Source: Rhodospirillaceae bacterium
GTDB lineage: Bacteria; Pseudomonadota; Alphaproteobacteria; UBA8366; GCA-2717185
Assembly (NCBI GenBank): GCA_028817685.1
Contig: JAPPPC010000364.1
Span: 1 to 30,444, forward strand
Reading direction: 5' to 3'
Length of the DNA stretch: 30,444 bases
Shown: positions 15,973 to 23,455 of the stretch, in pieces
How positions within the stretch are numbered: position 1 is the stretch's first letter
Layout: every line of letters begins with the position of its first letter
Translations under genes and position numbers: made by a program
The notes under the pieces: model-generated
What the model was told of the DNA's origin: nothing
Database searches by the model: none
What the model saw: the letters and a program-made list of their open reading frames with translations, nothing else

Positions 15973-16755
15973 ATGCGTTACGCACGGTTCGAAAAGGACG
16001 GCACGATCGCCTGCGGCATTGTCGAGGGCGATACCATCAAGGTCATCACAGGCGAAATCCTCGACGGCGGGACACCGACCGGGGAAACCCATGCGCTGGA
16101 CAGCGTCCAACTGCTGCCACCGATCATTCCGGAAACCTTTTATGCCGCCGGCTTGAACTATGTCGCTCACATTAAGGAGCAAGCGGAGTCGCGGGGGGCG
16201 AAACCGAACATTCCGGAAAAACCGGATATCGGCTATCGCGCCAACAATGCGCTGATCGGCCATAACGAAACCATCGTCATTCCGAAAGACGCCACCGACT
16301 TGGTGGAATACGAAGCGGAGTTGGTGGTGGTGATCGGCAAACAGGCGAAGCACCTGTCGGAAGCGGACGCGCTGTCCTGCGTCTTCGGCTACACCATCGG
16401 CAACGATGTCAGCGAGCGGACCTGGCAACGGGGCGACCGCACCTTTTGGCGCGGCAAGAACGCCGACACGTTCAAGCCGATGGGCCCCTGGATCGAAACC
16501 GACCTCGACCTCGACAGTCTCGAGACAACGGTGCGACTGAATGGCGAAGAGACGATCCGGTTCGAGACCAACAACATGCTGTTCGGGGTCGAACGCTATA
16601 TCAGCGCCATGTCAAAGTATCTGACGCTCTATCCCGGCGACGTGATCTGGATGGGCACCGAGGGCAAGTCGCCGCAGATGAAGCATGGTGACGTGTGCGA
16701 GATCGATATCACGGGCATCGGCACCTTGCGCAACCCGGTCGTGCGTGAGAGCTAA
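15973..16755 (+). CDS. Fumarylacetoacetate (FAH) hydrolase family protein
   Basis: GLNYVAH, EYEAELVVVIGK, GYTIGNDVSER, GKNADTFKPMGPW and LYPGDVIWMGT. Confidence 0.9.
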   Translation: MRYARFEKDGTIACGIVEGDTIKVITGEILDGGTPTGETHALDSVQLLPPIIPETFYAAGLNYVAHIKEQAESRGAKPNIPEKPDIGYRANNALIGHNETIVIPKDATDLVEYEAELVVVIGKQAKHLSEADALSCVFGYTIGNDVSERTWQRGDRTFWRGKNADTFKPMGPWIETDLDLDSLETTVRLNGEETIRFETNNMLFGVERYISAMSKYLTLYPGDVIWMGTEGKSPQMKHGDVCEIDITGIGTLRNPVVRES

Positions 16756-17429
16756 CGCGGCGGCGTATCCAAGGTCGCGCGGGTAAAGGTTTCGATGTAA
16801 TCGAGCAGCCGGTCGGACGCCGCGCAGGCGCGATCCCGGTCCCCGTCGCCGATAGCCCGAGCGACTTCCGCGTGAAGCCGGGCGCAGAGGGGTAGGTCCG
16901 CCACCTCTTGATAGTGGATGAACCAGAACCGTCGCGACAGGGGCTGCATCAATTGCATCGCCTTGGCCGCAAATCCGTTGCGCGCCGCATCCACCGAGAG
17001 ATCGTTCAACTCCCGGTCCAGCCGCAGGAAGGATCGGTCGTCATCGGTTTCCGCGGCATGCGCCATTTCGCGGGCAATGCCTTGAAAACGCTCACGTTCA
17101 GCCTCGGTCGCTCGCTCCGCGGCATTTCCCGCGATAAGCCGCTCGACCTCCCGACGCACTTCCAGGAGCTGCAATTGCGCCCGGATATCGATCTCCGAAA
17201 TCAAGATTCCCCGGCGCGGCAGAACCACAACCAACCCCGCATGCGCCAGACGTTGCAGCGCTTCGCGGATCGGCGTACGGCCGATGCCGACATGCTCGCT
17301 CAATTGCGCTTCCGAGACGATGCTGCCGGGTTCGAGCCGCAGCATCACGATTTCCTCTTCGATCCGCTCATAGGCCAAATCGGTCAGCGAGGCATATCCT
17401 TCGGTATCGTTGGCGGAGGCGATCGCCAT
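16752..17429 (-). CDS. GntR-family transcriptional regulator (FCD domain)
   Basis: Winged HTH (SEAQLSEHVGIGRTPIREALQRL...PRRG) followed by an FCD-like domain; AAGGA SD before ATG 17429. Confidence 0.92.
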   Translation of the reverse strand: MAIASANDTEGYASLTDLAYERIEEEIVMLRLEPGSIVSEAQLSEHVGIGRTPIREALQRLAHAGLVVVLPRRGILISEIDIRAQLQLLEVRREVERLIAGNAAERATEAERERFQGIAREMAHAAETDDDRSFLRLDRELNDLSVDAARNGFAAKAMQLMQPLSRRFWFIHYQEVADLPLCARLHAEVARAIGDGDRDRACAASDRLLDYIETFTRATLDTPPR

Positions 17430-17439
17430 GGGTGAGTCC

Positions 17440-17468
17440 TTGTCGCTCTGATATATCAGCAATATAGT
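17440..17468 (+). promoter_or_regulatory. sigma70 promoter of the PhyH gene with a palindromic operator in the spacer
   Basis: TTGTCG (17440-17445), 17 nt, TATAGT (17463-17468). The perfect 12-bp palindrome CTGATATATCAG lies at 17448-17459, between the divergent gntR and phyH genes. Confidence 0.75.
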
Positions 17469-17535
17469 TCAGGGATTATCGCCGCGAAAGCGCCGACAGG
17501 TTAAACGCCGACGTCACGACCGAGGAATGACCATC

Positions 17536-18477
17536 ATGTATCCCGAACGCGTCCAGGACCATGCCCCGAGAATTCTGACCGAGACGCAACGGGACTTCTA
17601 CTTCGAGAACGGCTATGTGATGCTCGAGTCCGTGGTGCCGATGGAAACCATCGAGCGGCTTCGCGCACTGACCGACGCGATGGTGGATCGCAGCCGATCG
17701 GTCGTCACATCCGACGCGATCTTCGATCTCGAGCCTGCCCACAACGCCGACACCCCACGCTTGCGCCGCCTGTCGTCGCCCGTCGCACAGGATCCGCTTT
17801 ACTGGGAGTTCGCCTCTGAGTCGGTGATCGCCGACATCGCGGCCGATCTGGTCGGCCCGAACGTCAAATTCCATCACTCCAAGCTCAACTTCAAATGGGC
17901 CGAAGGGGGCGAGGAAGTGAAGTGGCACCAGGACATCCAGTCCTGGGCGCACACCAATTACAGCCCGCTGACCATCGGCACGTATTTGTACGATGTCGGC
18001 CCTGAGCAAGGGCCGCTGGGCGTCATTCCCGGCAGTCACAAAGGCCCCCTGTTCAGCCAGTACAACGACAAGGACCAATGGACCGGCGATATTACAGACC
18101 GGGATTTGGAGACGGTGGCGCTCGATACGGCGGAATATCTAATGGGACCGGCCGGATCGGTCACGGTGCACAATTGCTGCACCATCCACGGATCGAAACC
18201 GAATCTGTCGGATCGTGGCCGGCCGTTGCTGCTCAACGTCTACTCGGCAGCCGACGCCTTCACCTACATGCCCAACCCCTTAAATACCGAGTTCGCCGGC
18301 GCCATCGTGCGCGGCAACGCGGTCCGCGAAGCCTTCATCGACCCGCGTCCCTGCGTCATGTCGCCGGATTGGTCGAAAGGCTACACCTCGCTCTTCGCCT
18401 TGCAGCAAAAGGAACAATGGAGCGATGATCAGATGGACCGGGTCGAACGGCAGCACCGCGAGGCGGTCAGCGGCTGA
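17536..18477 (+). CDS. Phytanoyl-CoA dioxygenase (PhyH/EctD-like) Fe(II)/2-oxoglutarate dioxygenase
   Basis: FYFENGY, KLNFK, the WHQD iron motif, IPGSH, the distal HGS and R in RPLL. ATG 17536 preferred over 17527 on SD spacing. Confidence 0.88.
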   Translation: MYPERVQDHAPRILTETQRDFYFENGYVMLESVVPMETIERLRALTDAMVDRSRSVVTSDAIFDLEPAHNADTPRLRRLSSPVAQDPLYWEFASESVIADIAADLVGPNVKFHHSKLNFKWAEGGEEVKWHQDIQSWAHTNYSPLTIGTYLYDVGPEQGPLGVIPGSHKGPLFSQYNDKDQWTGDITDRDLETVALDTAEYLMGPAGSVTVHNCCTIHGSKPNLSDRGRPLLLNVYSAADAFTYMPNPLNTEFAGAIVRGNAVREAFIDPRPCVMSPDWSKGYTSLFALQQKEQWSDDQMDRVERQHREAVSG

Positions 18478-18507
18478 CCGCCCTCACTGCGGCGACTGCC
18501 AATCCGA

Positions 18508-18696
18508 TTAGCCGCAGCGCCGACAGCGAACCTTCGCGAAGATCTCGTCCCAGTCGCCATCGGTTGCCGCGTAATCCAGCAGGCAGCGCAAGGCCTTCGA
18601 CTCATCCGGCAGCTTGTAGCGTTCGGCAATCGTCTTCAGCATCTCATGTGCGTCCGGATGGACCTCGTAGCCCATCTTGACCTTTGCGCCCGCCAT
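18508..18696 (-). CDS. Small hypothetical protein (62 aa) with a C-terminal CxxC motif and a possible ribbon-helix-helix fold
   Basis: Strong GGAGG SD upstream of the ATG; starts 15 nt after the dctM stop on the same strand; ends in RCRRCG. Confidence 0.75.
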   Translation of the reverse strand: MAGAKVKMGYEVHPDAHEMLKTIAERYKLPDESKALRCLLDYAATDGDWDEIFAKVRCRRCG

Positions 18697-18711
18697 GTGA
18701 GCCGCCTCCCG

Positions 18712-20055
18712 CTAGAAGCCCCGGAACAGAATCGTCGGCAACCAGAGCGCCAGATTCGGTATCGACAGCACGAACGCCAGAACCACCATGTGCAACACGA
18801 TGAACGGTATGACGCCCTTGTACATGTGCATCAAGGTAATCTCCGGCGGGCTGATGCCGCGCAGGTAGAAGATGGCGGGTGCCATCGGCGGCGTCAGATA
18901 GCTGGTCTGGATCATGATCAGGAAGCAGATCGAGAACCACACCTTCACCGAACCCGGATCAAGATCGAAGAACGGGAACCCGACGATGATCGGCATCGCG
19001 ATCGGCACAACGATGAGCATCAGCGAGATCAGATCCAGCACGAACCCGGCGGCGAAGGCCAGCAACAGCAGGATCGCCATGGTTTCCCAGTTGGTCAGCT
19101 CGGCCGCCTGCATCAATTGCTGGACGCCGACCAACCCGCCCGCGGCGGTGAAGACGCCGGCGAACATCGTGCCGCCGATCAGGATCAGCAGGATCATTGC
19201 CGTGATGACGACGGTCTTGTACAGCGCTTCCTTCATGACCGCGATGGTCAGCGTGCGGTAGCACAGGCACATGATGACCGAGCCTACGGCGCCGCAGCCG
19301 GCGGCCTCTGTCGGGGTTGCCAATCCGGCCAAGATCGAGCCAAGCACCGTGGCGATCAGCAATCCCGGTGGGATCATGGCGGTCGCCGTCATGGTCAACT
19401 TGCGCATGAAGGGGGGATCGTTTTCGTCGGCACCGACACGCGGTCCGTCTTCCGGACGAATCGTACAACGGACGACGATATAGACGATGTAGCAGCCGGC
19501 CAGCATCAGGCCCGGCAGGATCATCCCGGCGAACAGATCGCCGATCGACACGTCGGCCACAGGGCCGAGAATGACGACCACGACCGACGGCGGGATAATG
19601 GTGCCAAGCGATCCGCCGGCGCAAATCGTGCCGGAAATCAATGCCTTGTTATAGGCGTAGCGCATCATTACGGGGATCGCGAGCAGACCGACAACGGTCT
19701 CCGTCGCACCGACGATACCGGTCGATGCCGCGAACACCACGCACAGCAGGACCGTCCCGACAGCAAGGCCGCCGGGTAATCGTCTGGTCCACATATGTAT
19801 CGCCTCGAATAATCGTTCCGCGACACCAGAACGCTCCAGCAGCGACCCCATGAAAATGAACAGCGGAACCGCGCCCAGAACATAGTTCGACGCAACATCG
19901 TCGACTTTGGCGAGGTACAGCGCGACGGCCGATTCATTGAACCGGATGACGCCCCAAATCAACGCGACACCCATCAAGGAAAACGCGACCGGAAAGCCCA
20001 TAAACAGGCAAAACAGCAGCGCCGGGAACATCCATAGTGCGAATTCGACACTCAT
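18712..20055 (-). CDS. dctM: TRAP transporter large permease
   Basis: 447 aa, highly hydrophobic; AVPLFIFMG, GGSLGTIIPPS, ATPTEAA and TSYLTPPMAPA motifs. Confidence 0.96.
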   Translation of the reverse strand: MSVEFALWMFPALLFCLFMGFPVAFSLMGVALIWGVIRFNESAVALYLAKVDDVASNYVLGAVPLFIFMGSLLERSGVAERLFEAIHMWTRRLPGGLAVGTVLLCVVFAASTGIVGATETVVGLLAIPVMMRYAYNKALISGTICAGGSLGTIIPPSVVVVILGPVADVSIGDLFAGMILPGLMLAGCYIVYIVVRCTIRPEDGPRVGADENDPPFMRKLTMTATAMIPPGLLIATVLGSILAGLATPTEAAGCGAVGSVIMCLCYRTLTIAVMKEALYKTVVITAMILLILIGGTMFAGVFTAAGGLVGVQQLMQAAELTNWETMAILLLLAFAAGFVLDLISLMLIVVPIAMPIIVGFPFFDLDPGSVKVWFSICFLIMIQTSYLTPPMAPAIFYLRGISPPEITLMHMYKGVIPFIVLHMVVLAFVLSIPNLALWLPTILFRGF

Positions 20056-20756
20056 TATTCGAAGCCTCCCGGCAGATCCGGTTCCGGCACGTCACGATCC
20101 ATCAGGACGAGGATGCACTTCAAGGTCTCAGCGACCACCTGAAGCGTGAACAGATAGAAACCAAAGGTAAACGTGAATTTGAACGGCCAGATCAACGGGT
20201 TCCAGGCGGATTCGCCGGAACGCTCATTCACCTTGTAGGCTTCGAGGAAATACTCGTAGAGCCCCCAAGTCGTCCAAATGATGATTGGCAACAGAAGAAC
20301 AATGTAGCCGACCAAATCGATCAGCGCTTTTTGCTTTTCCGAAACATTGTCATAGAAAAAGTCGACGCGGATGTGGCGACGCAGTTGCGTACAATAGGCA
20401 ATGGCCAGCATCAGGCTGGTACCCATCATCATATAGGACACCTCGAACGCCCAAGAGGTCGGCGCCCGAAATGCGTACCGCATGATGACTTCGTAGACGA
20501 TCAGGACCGCCAACACCGGAATGATGCTGGCACTTACGATACCGGCATATTTCGCCAACCTTTCGATTGGCCGGACGAAATTGAATACATCCCGCCCGAT
20601 CACCGCATGCACAACGCCCCAAAGGACATACAAGGCGGTCAGGTAAAATATCCCGACCAATACGCCAAGAAACCATCCGTGACCTTCGGGTTTACCCGAA
20701 AGAATCAACGAGTGCGTTTCCGACAATACGCTCAGTACTGCGTCCATCACCCACAT
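20055..20756 (-). CDS. dctQ: TRAP transporter small permease with an N-terminal extension
   Basis: YEVIMRYAFRAPTSWAFE and HIRVDFFY motifs; TAATG overlap with the dctM start. Exact start uncertain (20756 or 20747). Confidence 0.9.
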   Translation of the reverse strand: MWVMDAVLSVLSETHSLILSGKPEGHGWFLGVLVGIFYLTALYVLWGVVHAVIGRDVFNFVRPIERLAKYAGIVSASIIPVLAVLIVYEVIMRYAFRAPTSWAFEVSYMMMGTSLMLAIAYCTQLRRHIRVDFFYDNVSEKQKALIDLVGYIVLLLPIIIWTTWGLYEYFLEAYKVNERSGESAWNPLIWPFKFTFTFGFYLFTLQVVAETLKCILVLMDRDVPEPDLPGGFE

Positions 20757-20786
20757 CCAAACTTGGAAAATTGAAAAATCGAGGAA

Positions 20787-20813
20787 GGGGGAACGCGTGG
20801 TCCGCGTTCCCCC
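20787..20813 (-). terminator. 11-bp GC stem-loop between dctP and dctQ (terminator-like or mRNA-stabilising)
   Basis: GGGGGAACGCG-5-nt loop-CGCGTTCCCCC; on the minus strand it is followed by TTCCTCGATTTTTC, an imperfect U-tract. Confidence 0.7.
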
Positions 20814-20834
20814 GAAACAATCCTCAAAACCGGC

Positions 20835-21911
20835 TTACTTGATGATGTCGCCGATCGCCGTGCGCGTACCCGGTCCGGAACGCATTTTCGAATACACGGT
20901 CATGTCGTGCTGGAACTTACGCTGATGGTTCAACATCTTCTTGAACCATTCGTTGCCCGCAACCTGCTTGTCGGCCCACTCGTTACCGGCCTTCTGGGCG
21001 GCATCGATGAAGGACTGCTCCAGGCGAAGCATGGTGTTGCCGCCTTTTTCCATCCGCCGATAGGCGAACAGGTCGTTATAGGCGTGGTTGCGCCAGGCGC
21101 GGAACGTCCGCAGTTCGCCGGCGTATTTGATCAGCGTCTTGTCACGCTCGGAGACGGCGTCCCAGGCTTTCTTGTTGAATTCACATTCCTGCGTGGCGCC
21201 CGGCTGATGGACACCCGGGAAGATGATGTATTTGGCGATCTTGTGGAAACCAACCGGCTCGTTGACCGACGGCGAGCTCCACTCCGTGGCGTCGATAACG
21301 CCGCGTTCCAGCGCCGGATAGACTTCCGCGCCAGGCAAGATAACCGTGGTCGCACCGAGCGAACCGCCAACCTCGGCCCAGGCACCGGCCGTACGCTGCT
21401 TGATGCCTTTGTAATCCGCCAGGTTCGTCACTTTACGCTTCGAATGCAGGAAGATTTCCGCCGGGAAAATGCCGCACGGGATCGACATGACGCCGAATTT
21501 CTCCATGCGATACTGTTCCCACAGATCGACGCCACCGGCTTGATAGAGCCACAGGAAGAATTCCTCTTCCGTCAGACCGCCGACATAGCCGCCGAAGATG
21601 ACGGTGGTTTTGTCGATGCCCCAATCGTAACCCATCCAGTTATGGCCCGCTTGGGCGACACCGGATTTCACCGAGTCCGTGACCTTCAGCGCTTTACCAA
21701 GCGTACCCGCCGGGAAAACCGTGATATTCACGCGGCCTTCGGTCAATTCCTTGACCAGAGACGCGAACGACTTGGCATCTTCAAGAGGCTTACCGCCGCC
21801 CCAAGGCGTGGCCATGCTCCAGTTGGCTTGGGCGAGAGCCGATCCGGCCATCGCCATCATGCCTAACCCAGCGGCCGCGCCGACCGCCGTTTTAATGACA
21901 TTTTTTAACAT
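20835..21911 (-). CDS. dctP: TRAP solute-binding protein, DctP family (TakP-like)
   Basis: Signal peptide ending ALA; WSMATPW, KQRTAG (carboxylate-binding Arg position), EVYPALERGVIDATEW and GFHKIAKY; GGGAGG SD before ATG 21911. Confidence 0.93.
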   Translation of the reverse strand: MLKNVIKTAVGAAAGLGMMAMAGSALAQANWSMATPWGGGKPLEDAKSFASLVKELTEGRVNITVFPAGTLGKALKVTDSVKSGVAQAGHNWMGYDWGIDKTTVIFGGYVGGLTEEEFFLWLYQAGGVDLWEQYRMEKFGVMSIPCGIFPAEIFLHSKRKVTNLADYKGIKQRTAGAWAEVGGSLGATTVILPGAEVYPALERGVIDATEWSSPSVNEPVGFHKIAKYIIFPGVHQPGATQECEFNKKAWDAVSERDKTLIKYAGELRTFRAWRNHAYNDLFAYRRMEKGGNTMLRLEQSFIDAAQKAGNEWADKQVAGNEWFKKMLNHQRKFQHDMTVYSKMRSGPGTRTAIGDIIK

Positions 21912-22137
21912 TAGGTCCTCCCTGTTATGGACTAGTTTGAGACTAAAGGTGGATTCAGCTGCCTCCACCTCAATTAGGAAATCACTTGCAGGCCCACCTC
22001 AACCCCTGGCCGCGAGTGTTCACCATTGCTAATTGTTGGTCAACCTTTTCACGTCTCGACGCCGCGGCCTTTTACTGTCCCGTAAAATTGGCACCGCCAC
22101 GCGCGCAACACACACTCCCCATCGTTAAGTTGTCCGT

Positions 22138-22166
22138 ACAATACAAGTGACATATCAGTCCGACAA
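22138..22166 (-). promoter_or_regulatory. sigma70 promoter of the dctPQM operon with a second copy of the operator in the spacer
   Basis: Minus strand: TTGTCG (22166-22161), spacer GACTGATATGTCACTTG, TATTGT (22143-22138). Same layout as 17440-17468; the operator matches 10 of 12 positions. Confidence 0.7.
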
Positions 22167-22348
22167 GACGGTAACACGAAACCGTTTTTAACAGCCCGGG
22201 CACCGGCCTGTCCGCTGCCATCGCAAATTTGTTACGGCCCGGCGTGACAGTGTTTAAAGTCTGCCCACCGCGAACGATCCAAACCGTCAGGCCGTGAGCG
22301 GCTTGTACGGCATGCAGTCATGACGACGATCAACTCATAGGAGGCGAA

Positions 22349-23455
22349 ATGAACGATAAGGCGAAAACCGCCGGCGATATTCGGATGAAAGGCAGCGGCT
22401 ACTATTCGCTGGCCACCACCGGCGCGAAGATCGTCATCGATGGCGCCATGCCTCTGATCCGCGGCGCCCTGGACCGGATGGATATCCAAGATGACGGCAC
22501 CGTCTTCGCGATGGCCGATATGGGATGCGCCGACGGCGGCACTTCGATCAGCATGGTCGGTGAAGCCTTGCGCTATGTGCGCGAAAGGGCGCCGTCACGG
22601 CCCCTGACGATGACCTACACGGACTTGCCGCGAAACGATTTCAGTCAGGTCTTTCACAATGTCCACGGCCTGACCGACCTGCCGGGCTACGCGCCGGATA
22701 TCGACAATCTCTACGTCTTCGCGTCCGGCACCTCGTTCCATCAGCGCATCTTCCCCGACAATGCACTTAATTTTGGCTTCTCCGCGACCGCCTCACATTA
22801 CATCAGCGAACGCCCCGGCCCGATCACCAATCACGTCCATATGGTCGGCGCCGAGGGGGCGGAGCTGGCCGCTTATACGGAACAGGGCCGCGCCGACTGG
22901 GAGCGCATTCTCGGTTGCCGTGCAGCGGAGCTGGTGCCCGGCGGGGGATTGGTCTTGCTCAATTTCTGCCGCGACGAGAAAGGCCGCTATCTCGGCGGTA
23001 CCGAGGGCGTGAACATGTTCCACACCTTCGATCGTCTGTGGCGGGAGATGGCCGAGGACGGCGCGATCACCATGGCGGAATATGAAGCCACGGTCTTCCC
23101 GCAATATTACCGCGACATCGATGAATGCAGCGCACCGCTGACCGATCCCAGCAGCCCCGTGCACAAAGCCGGCCTTCGCCTGGATCACATCGAAACCAAG
23201 GTGATCGATTGTCCCTACCGGCTCGACTACGAGCAGCATGGCGATGCGACCAAATTCGCCCGGGACTATATCCCGACCCTGCGCTCCTGGAGCGAAAGCG
23301 TCTTCTTCGCCGGCTTGTCAGAAGACCGGCCGCTGGAAGAACGCGCCGACCTTATCGATCGCTATTTCGATTCCTACGAGACCTTCGTGCGCGAGAACCC
23401 GGCCGGCCAAGGCATGGACTATGTCCACACCTACATGGTCATGCACAAGGAGTAA
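22349..23455 (+). CDS. SAM-dependent methyltransferase, SABATH-like (Methyltransf_7) family
   Basis: MKGSGYYS, ADMGCADGGTS, TDLPRNDFSQVF, GTSFHQRIFP and SATASHYISERP occur in the same order as the plant SABATH motifs; AGGAGG SD. Confidence 0.85.
   Translation: MNDKAKTAGDIRMKGSGYYSLATTGAKIVIDGAMPLIRGALDRMDIQDDGTVFAMADMGCADGGTSISMVGEALRYVRERAPSRPLTMTYTDLPRNDFSQVFHNVHGLTDLPGYAPDIDNLYVFASGTSFHQRIFPDNALNFGFSATASHYISERPGPITNHVHMVGAEGAELAAYTEQGRADWERILGCRAAELVPGGGLVLLNFCRDEKGRYLGGTEGVNMFHTFDRLWREMAEDGAITMAEYEATVFPQYYRDIDECSAPLTDPSSPVHKAGLRLDHIETKVIDCPYRLDYEQHGDATKFARDYIPTLRSWSESVFFAGLSEDRPLEERADLIDRYFDSYETFVRENPAGQGMDYVHTYMVMHKE

Follow-up and report, generated by a model that had tools for sequence, protein, structure and literature searches.

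Among described regulators, Atu1419 of Agrobacterium fabrum, an FCD protein of the VanR group (PDB 6Z74), binds 10-bp AT-rich palindromes, ATGTATACAT, that overlap the -10 element or fall between the -35 and -10 elements of divergent catabolic promoters, its own included (PMC7797058). Here we describe a locus with a comparable layout in a 30,444-nucleotide stretch of DNA (GenBank assembly GCA_028817685.1, contig JAPPPC010000364.1, positions 1 to 30,444; hereafter the window) from the 5.56-Mb, 906-contig metagenome-assembled genome of an uncultured marine Rhodospirillaceae bacterium. The window contains gntR, which encodes a GntR-family regulator with an FCD effector domain, the dioxygenase gene phyH, a gene for a 62-aa protein, and the TRAP transporter genes dctPQM, and two short palindromes lie in promoter-like units directed at phyH (site 1) and at dctP (site 2). 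On comparative sequence evidence, we propose that the GntR/FCD regulator encoded beside the two palindromes uses them as its operators, and we put the probability of this reading at about 0.78. As in the Atu1419 system, an FCD regulator accompanies short AT-rich palindromes at the same promoter positions, and E40, R51, T52 and R55 of GntR align with the reported DNA-contact residues (Glu, Arg, Thr, Arg) of Atu1419. However, Atu1419 is a distant sequence relative (30 bits), the half-site is TGATA here and ATGTA there, and the effector and pathway of Atu1419, which belong to hydroxycinnamate degradation, are unrelated to the present locus.

An earlier, sequence-only reading of this DNA had described twin units with a common -35 hexamer, a 17-nt spacer, the same palindrome offset and a near-identical -10 hexamer, and we find all of these features (Table 1). 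The two units are identical at 21 of 29 bases and hold the core CTGATATRTCAS between a TTGTCG -35 and a TATWGT -10. The palindrome of site 1 also lies 19-30 nt upstream of the gntR start codon (ATG at 17429), again as had been claimed. Within the window the core matches sites 1 and 2 only, against an expectation of 0.20 from shuffled sequences, none of 100 shuffles reaching the observed count; a scan of the entire assembly likewise returned these two sites and no other match. Matches to the core with one mismatch elsewhere in the genome were at control level (32 versus 27 in the control) and fell mostly within coding sequence. The two sites occupy promoter regions that are 4.7 kb apart and flank the regulator's own cluster. 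A sigma-70 consensus scan called the promoter of site 1 at 9/12 and left that of site 2, at 8/12, uncalled.

The motif is present at orthologous loci. All seven related loci in which gntR is intact have the same site 1 palindrome, among them those of genomes G001, G002, G003, G004, G006 and G014, with the flanking intergenic DNA diverged; G014 belongs to another genus, and its PhyH is 64% identical to that of the window. Four of five relatives keep site 2: it is intact in G007, G002 and G004, and G001 carries a single half-site change. In G007 (L056, 3200-3905 and 3880-4045), gntR is a truncated pseudogene with frameshifts, stops and an internal deletion. The site 1 palindrome of that genome has been mutated to CTGGTATATCAG, and its copy of a third operator, which precedes a DUF6166 gene and is described below, carries two changes.

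The regulator itself matches the GntR winged helix-turn-helix model (PF00392) over residues 19-77 with 58.3 bits (cut-off, 27) and the FCD model (PF07729) over residues 87-210 with 70.7 bits (cut-off, 24.3). Its recognition helix/helix-turn-helix, GIGRTPIREALQRLA, is invariant in 15 orthologues, and D130, H172 and H186, which form a putative FCD metal site, are invariant among orthologues as well. Around distant GntR orthologues from Alpha- and Betaproteobacteria (58-65% identical), the promoter regions of PhyH, PanB-like, FA_hydroxylase and dctP genes contain TGATATATCA, TGATATATTA or TAACATATCA, and these orthologues cluster with dctPQM and with genes for PhyH, DUF6166, a PanB-like enzyme and an FA_hydroxylase-type membrane protein. 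Overall, the orthologues of these two classes that have TGATATATCA-like sites nearby are 52-65% identical to the GntR of the window. We also examined a sample of 401 genomes of the class, using a 12-nt weight matrix trained solely on the sites of other genomes. A GntR orthologue was found in 17 genomes, a homologue of the 62-aa protein in 23, and both in four. Among the 13 genomes with GntR and no detected homologue of the small protein, ten have a match of at least 14 bits no more than 1.5 kb from gntR, where about 0.02-0.04 such matches are expected per locus; similarly, the small gene was not found in the fetched flanks of seven of eight distant GntR loci. Because its distribution follows gntR orthologues, the palindrome appears to belong to GntR and not to the 62-aa protein. 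Comparative genomics supports the claim that GntR would control phyH, gntR and dctPQM with the small gene through both palindromes, since the sites are conserved at orthologous loci and travel with gntR across two classes, and since the recognition helix is invariant.

Several observations weigh against this reading. The weight matrix is unspecific genome-wide, giving five matches of at least 18 bits in the real genome and 4-8 in second-order Markov genomes. Since the Markov genomes score equally many, we do not use the match count as evidence, and significance rests instead on the location of the sites and their conservation elsewhere. Such chance-level matching, together with the resemblance of both units to sigma-70 hexamers, is what would be expected if the twin units simply had their promoter architecture in common, or were copies of one promoter cassette, with no dedicated repressor acting on the AT-rich spacer sequence that forms the palindrome. 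The palindrome, however, shows stronger conservation than the hexamers and the flanking DNA; other families have it downstream of the -10, still linked to gntR; and it decays, at site 1 and at the third operator, where gntR is a pseudogene. We therefore consider a repressor-free origin of the motif very improbable. Also adverse to operator function are the loss of the site 2 palindrome in G006, which retains the promoter hexamers of that site, and the half-site change in G001.

In G007, moreover, site 2 is intact despite the broken gntR, and the small gene is intact too. This last observation would fit binding of the palindromes by the 62-aa protein, alone or together with GntR, with autoregulation of the dctPQM-small gene operon and control of phyH. 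The protein has a predicted ribbon-helix-helix (RHH) fold and is predicted to dimerize via its N-terminal strand, its gene adjoins phyH in every locus that has it, and the palindrome is accompanied in all cases by another AT-rich element, ARTATAYT, which might be an extra half-site. Against this stand the ten genomes and seven distant loci mentioned above, in which the palindrome lies beside gntR and the small gene was not detected. In addition, distant homologues of the small protein occur in unrelated contexts, with neighbours that share no theme and no such palindrome recurring alongside. We judge recognition by the 62-aa protein to be improbable, and the assignment of the palindromes to GntR is retained.

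The remaining adverse observation concerns transcription. Metatranscriptome contigs near-identical to the window cover dctP well (summed depth 8.6-34 over four bins in X1 and X2, and 4.7-14 in X3), cover dctQ and dctM weakly, and give little or no cover of phyH and the methyltransferase gene that lies divergent from dctP. Good cover of dctP but not of phyH fits a separate dctP promoter and not simple co-regulation. A second promoter-like element, P2, is indeed present about 100 nt upstream of dctP. P2 and the roughly 100 nt that follow it (the leader, to 21911) are almost invariant in six loci of the genus, and the P2 hexamers recur in G014; the 100 nt between the P2 block and site 2 are unconserved. 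The P2 block probably represents a further dctP promoter followed by a conserved leader. A marine RNA contig spanning 21948-22117 extends upstream of P2 without reaching the start that site 2 would predict, which lies 14 nt beyond its end. The RNA contigs are undirected, of low depth and in many cases only 90-95% alike, and as weak evidence they are compatible with two dctP promoters. A riboswitch in the 240-nt dctP leader was considered and rejected, the consensus fold of six genomes having no covariation support (term +0.2); an Rfam scan of 16000-23000 at E<=1 gave no match.

In a further alternative, GntR would bind site 2 mainly to control the SABATH-type methyltransferase gene on the plus strand, with dctP driven by P2. 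P2 is strongly conserved and nearer to dctP than site 2 is, and on the plus strand TACAAT (22137-22142) is followed by the palindrome, which reproduces the -10-palindrome order of other promoters of the gene set. There is, however, no evident plus-strand -35 at site 2, no methyltransferase gene was found in the distant clusters with this operator, and RNA contigs that lie over the leader have no counterpart over the methyltransferase gene. Furthermore, in G002 the methyltransferase gene lies 2.6 kb away behind another gene, and site 2 is still found 230 nt before dctP. An effect of site 2 on the divergent methyltransferase gene is conceivable in principle; that this is its main role seems unlikely, and we continue to regard dctP as its target.

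Table 1. Features of the locus (window coordinates)
Feature	Position	Strand	Remarks
gntR	16752..17429	-	GntR-family regulator with FCD effector domain, 225 aa (Pfam)
Site 1, phyH promoter-like unit with palindrome in spacer	17440..17468	+	TTGTCG-CT-CTGATATATCAG-CAA-TATAGT; -35/-10 gap N17
Putative operator 1	17448..17459		Perfect palindrome CTGATATATCAG; top weight-matrix match genome-wide, 22.8 bits
Candidate gntR-directed promoter	17461..17489	-	TTTCGC-N17-TATATT, read from the sequence; start would fall inside operator 1
phyH	17527..18477	+	Fe(II)/2-oxoglutarate dioxygenase, PhyH family; Pfam PhyH 101 bits
Gene for 62-aa protein	18508..18696	-	Predicted ribbon-helix-helix protein, C-terminal CxxC; 15 nt after dctM
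dctM	18712..20055	-	TRAP large permease; Pfam DctM 223 bits
dctQ	20055..20756	-	TRAP small permease; Pfam DctQ 83 bits
dctP	20835..21911	-	TRAP solute-binding protein, TakP/lactate-binding type; Pfam DctP 110 bits
P2, second promoter-like element	22015..22043	-	TTGACC-N17-AACACT; ~100 nt upstream of dctP
Site 2, dctP-directed promoter-like unit with palindrome in spacer	22138..22166	-	TTGTCG-GA-CTGATATGTCAC-TTG-TATTGT; gap N17
Putative operator 2	22147..22158		CTGATATGTCAC on minus strand; 18.5 bits, genome rank 3
Methyltransferase gene	22349-23455	+	SABATH type (Methyltransf_7); divergent from dctP

In the mechanism that we propose, a GntR dimer at operator 1 would occupy the phyH promoter spacer as well as the start of the candidate divergent gntR promoter and so repress both genes, and a dimer at operator 2, within the spacer of the distal dctP promoter, would repress dctPQM and the gene for the 62-aa protein. 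A third operator on contig C838 would serve in the same manner to repress an operon of DUF6166 and FA_hydroxylase-type genes. The position of the operators within a -35/-10 spacer or over +1 argues for repression by occlusion, and we infer repression over activation. A small acid, or a product of it, would bind the FCD domain and release the repressor, a step that we suggest by analogy with Atu1419, which acts so on similar palindromes. The TRAP system would import the acid, and PhyH and the di-iron enzyme would oxidize it. Both sites are located between divergent genes, and site 1 is therefore likely to serve a gntR promoter as well. The candidate minus-strand element has the -10-palindrome layout of the DUF6166 promoter, its TTTC-type -35 recurs in orthologues, and it is plausibly an autoregulated gntR promoter.

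The regulon put forward by the sequence-only reading, comprising gntR, phyH, dctPQM and the small gene, is supported at its core and is too narrow in extent. On contig C838 of the same genome (L122), TTTACA-N17-TAATAT is followed directly by CAGATATATCAG, which places the site at +1, 19 nt before a DUF6166 gene overlapped by an FA_hydroxylase-type (membrane di-iron hydroxylase) gene. This arrangement is conserved in five members of the genus and decayed in G007, which carries the gntR pseudogene. At 414-436 of this contig, two overlapping motif copies, TTAATATATCAC (which contains the -10) and CAGATATATCAG, lie in tandem with centres 11 bp apart, an arrangement that hints at cooperative or tetrameric binding. 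In distant families the palindrome stands just downstream of the -10 before phyH, before the FA_hydroxylase gene, and before a DUF6166-panB-dctPQM-gntR operon. The PanB-like enzyme of the distant clusters is 80-87% identical to the G226/L088 copy. We suggest from these comparisons that the gene set is wider than first described, adding the DUF6166 and FA_hydroxylase-type pair in this genome and the PanB-like enzyme in relatives.

Another match, CTGATATATTAC (20 bits), lies at 3162-3173 of contig C173 (L125), in the intergenic region that has a TauD gene and a PEP-mutase/ICL-family gene on its upstream side and tctCBA 100 nt downstream. This match could be checked in one near-identical relative only, and it is a candidate for a regulon site that would make tctCBA a second transporter of the gene set. 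Elsewhere in the genome, contig C273 (L123, 5457-8456) carries two PhyH paralogues in tandem, with about 54% identity to the PhyH of the window, and directly after them a PanB-family gene cut by the contig end; the genome has at least six PhyH paralogues in all.

Pfam confirmed the claimed identities of the GntR/FCD regulator, PhyH, DctM, DctQ and DctP, and with all three TRAP components encoded by adjacent genes, the transporter is complete. The start of phyH is more likely at 17536 than at 17527. Genes for an FAH-family hydrolase and a GST lie downstream of gntR, and the gene order GST-FAH-gntR-phyH-small gene-dctMQP-methyltransferase is conserved in genus-level loci of sufficient length. 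The methyltransferase gene is divergent from dctP throughout the genus. In G002, G004 and G006 (L057, L059, L060), gntR and the FAH gene are separated by a further PhyH paralogue (54-57% identical), and the genome search flagged one in-frame stop in each of these copies; the window and G001 have no PhyH paralogue at this position.

The PhyH triad H131, D133 and H212 (HxD...H) is invariant in 13 orthologues, and the nearest solved relative is EctD (E 2e-16). Assignment of PhyH as an ectoine hydroxylase was rejected, since the protein scores 54.3 bits with TIGR02408 against a cut-off of 336.5; PhyH is remote from all characterized enzymes. The nearest PDB chains to DctP are 5cm6, 2zzv (lactate-binding), 2hzk and 7ug8 (ketoacid-binding), with E-values of 1e-37 to 1e-40. 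The PanB-like partner found in relatives passes PanB models, which points to 2-oxoacid chemistry. Given the type of DctP and this partner, the substrate would most likely be a 2-oxo or 2-hydroxy monocarboxylate. The locus may, as had been suggested, import and hydroxylate one carboxylate. A joint reading of all of these components, which we offer as tentative and rather doubtful, is that the regulon encodes a so far undescribed pathway by which a branched 2-oxo or 2-hydroxy acid is oxidized. After import, the acid would be hydroxylated by PhyH and by the membrane di-iron enzyme associated with DUF6166, the PanB-like enzyme of relatives would remove or add a hydroxymethyl unit via tetrahydrofolate, and the RHH-CxxC protein would serve either as an additional regulator that senses metal or redox state or as a partner protein for the hydroxylase.

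Neither Pfam nor NCBIfam gave a match to the 62-aa protein. Weak RHH_3 matches occur in just three of 50 homologues, so that the RHH assignment failed as a sequence-model test, and a search of PDB sequences with the family profile gave nothing meaningful. K34, R37, R57, C58 and C61 are invariant in the 50 homologues. An AlphaFold2 model (predicted local distance difference test score, 85) shows a strand-helix-helix fold, with helices at 14-26 and 32-45 after an extended N-terminus. The Foldseek list for this model is led by, and mostly consists of, RHH proteins (MazE, CopG, NikR, ORF56 and PutA), all with E-values above 1, and the small RHH domains 3ft7, 8imh and CopG align to it with template modelling scores (to target) of 0.83-0.87 and root-mean-square deviations of 1-1.8 A. 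The predicted homodimer scores 0.61, a mark reached by 20 of 30 solved homodimers and one of 23 solved monomers, versus 0.00 for the best control, and its interface comprises residues 3-17 and 35-44. These models suggest that the protein is probably a second DNA-binding protein of the locus, an RHH dimer. Where the gene and phyH co-occur they are always convergent with adjoining stops (18477-18508 in the window), and the other neighbour of the small gene varies among dctM, dctP, DUF6166 and an ABM monooxygenase gene.

The sequence-only reading did not recognize this gene combination as a described pathway, and we likewise found no paper on the combination or on DUF6166; a literature search on bacterial SABATH enzymes yielded nothing of relevance for the present locus. 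The regulatory design is ordinary, even textbook, and the pathway is undescribed. The value of the switch is the handle that it offers on function. On sequence grounds, a single motif appears to tie PhyH, the TRAP importer, the DUF6166/di-iron pair, the PanB-like enzyme of relatives and the RHH-CxxC protein into a co-regulated set, one that recurs in marine, soil and freshwater Alpha- and Betaproteobacteria. The motif lets the regulon be delimited in any genome, and it guides the choice of proteins, DctP and the FCD domain of GntR, whose ligand would name the pathway.

The components of the locus resemble well-characterized proteins to differing degrees. Like the E. coli FadR subfamily, the regulator combines a winged helix-turn-helix with an all-helical effector domain and would act as a dimer on one palindrome by promoter occlusion; unlike it, FadR recognizes a TGGT-N-ACCA-like consensus and has an effector domain without the FCD metal site. 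DctP has its nearest solved relatives in TakP and the lactate/2-oxoacid-binding proteins (2hzk, 2zzv, 5cm6 and 7ug8), all TRAP binding proteins of about 360 aa, but identity is too low for their ligands to be transferred to it. PhyH shares with EctD (3emr, 4mhr) the PhyH fold of an Fe/2-oxoglutarate hydroxylase and the HxD...H triad, whereas its context is catabolic and transport-linked. Finally, the 62-aa protein is predicted to share with CopG, MazE and NikR a strand-helix-helix fold that dimerizes through the N-terminal strand, and it differs from them in scoring below the Pfam RHH thresholds and in possessing a unique invariant tail that ends in RCxxC.

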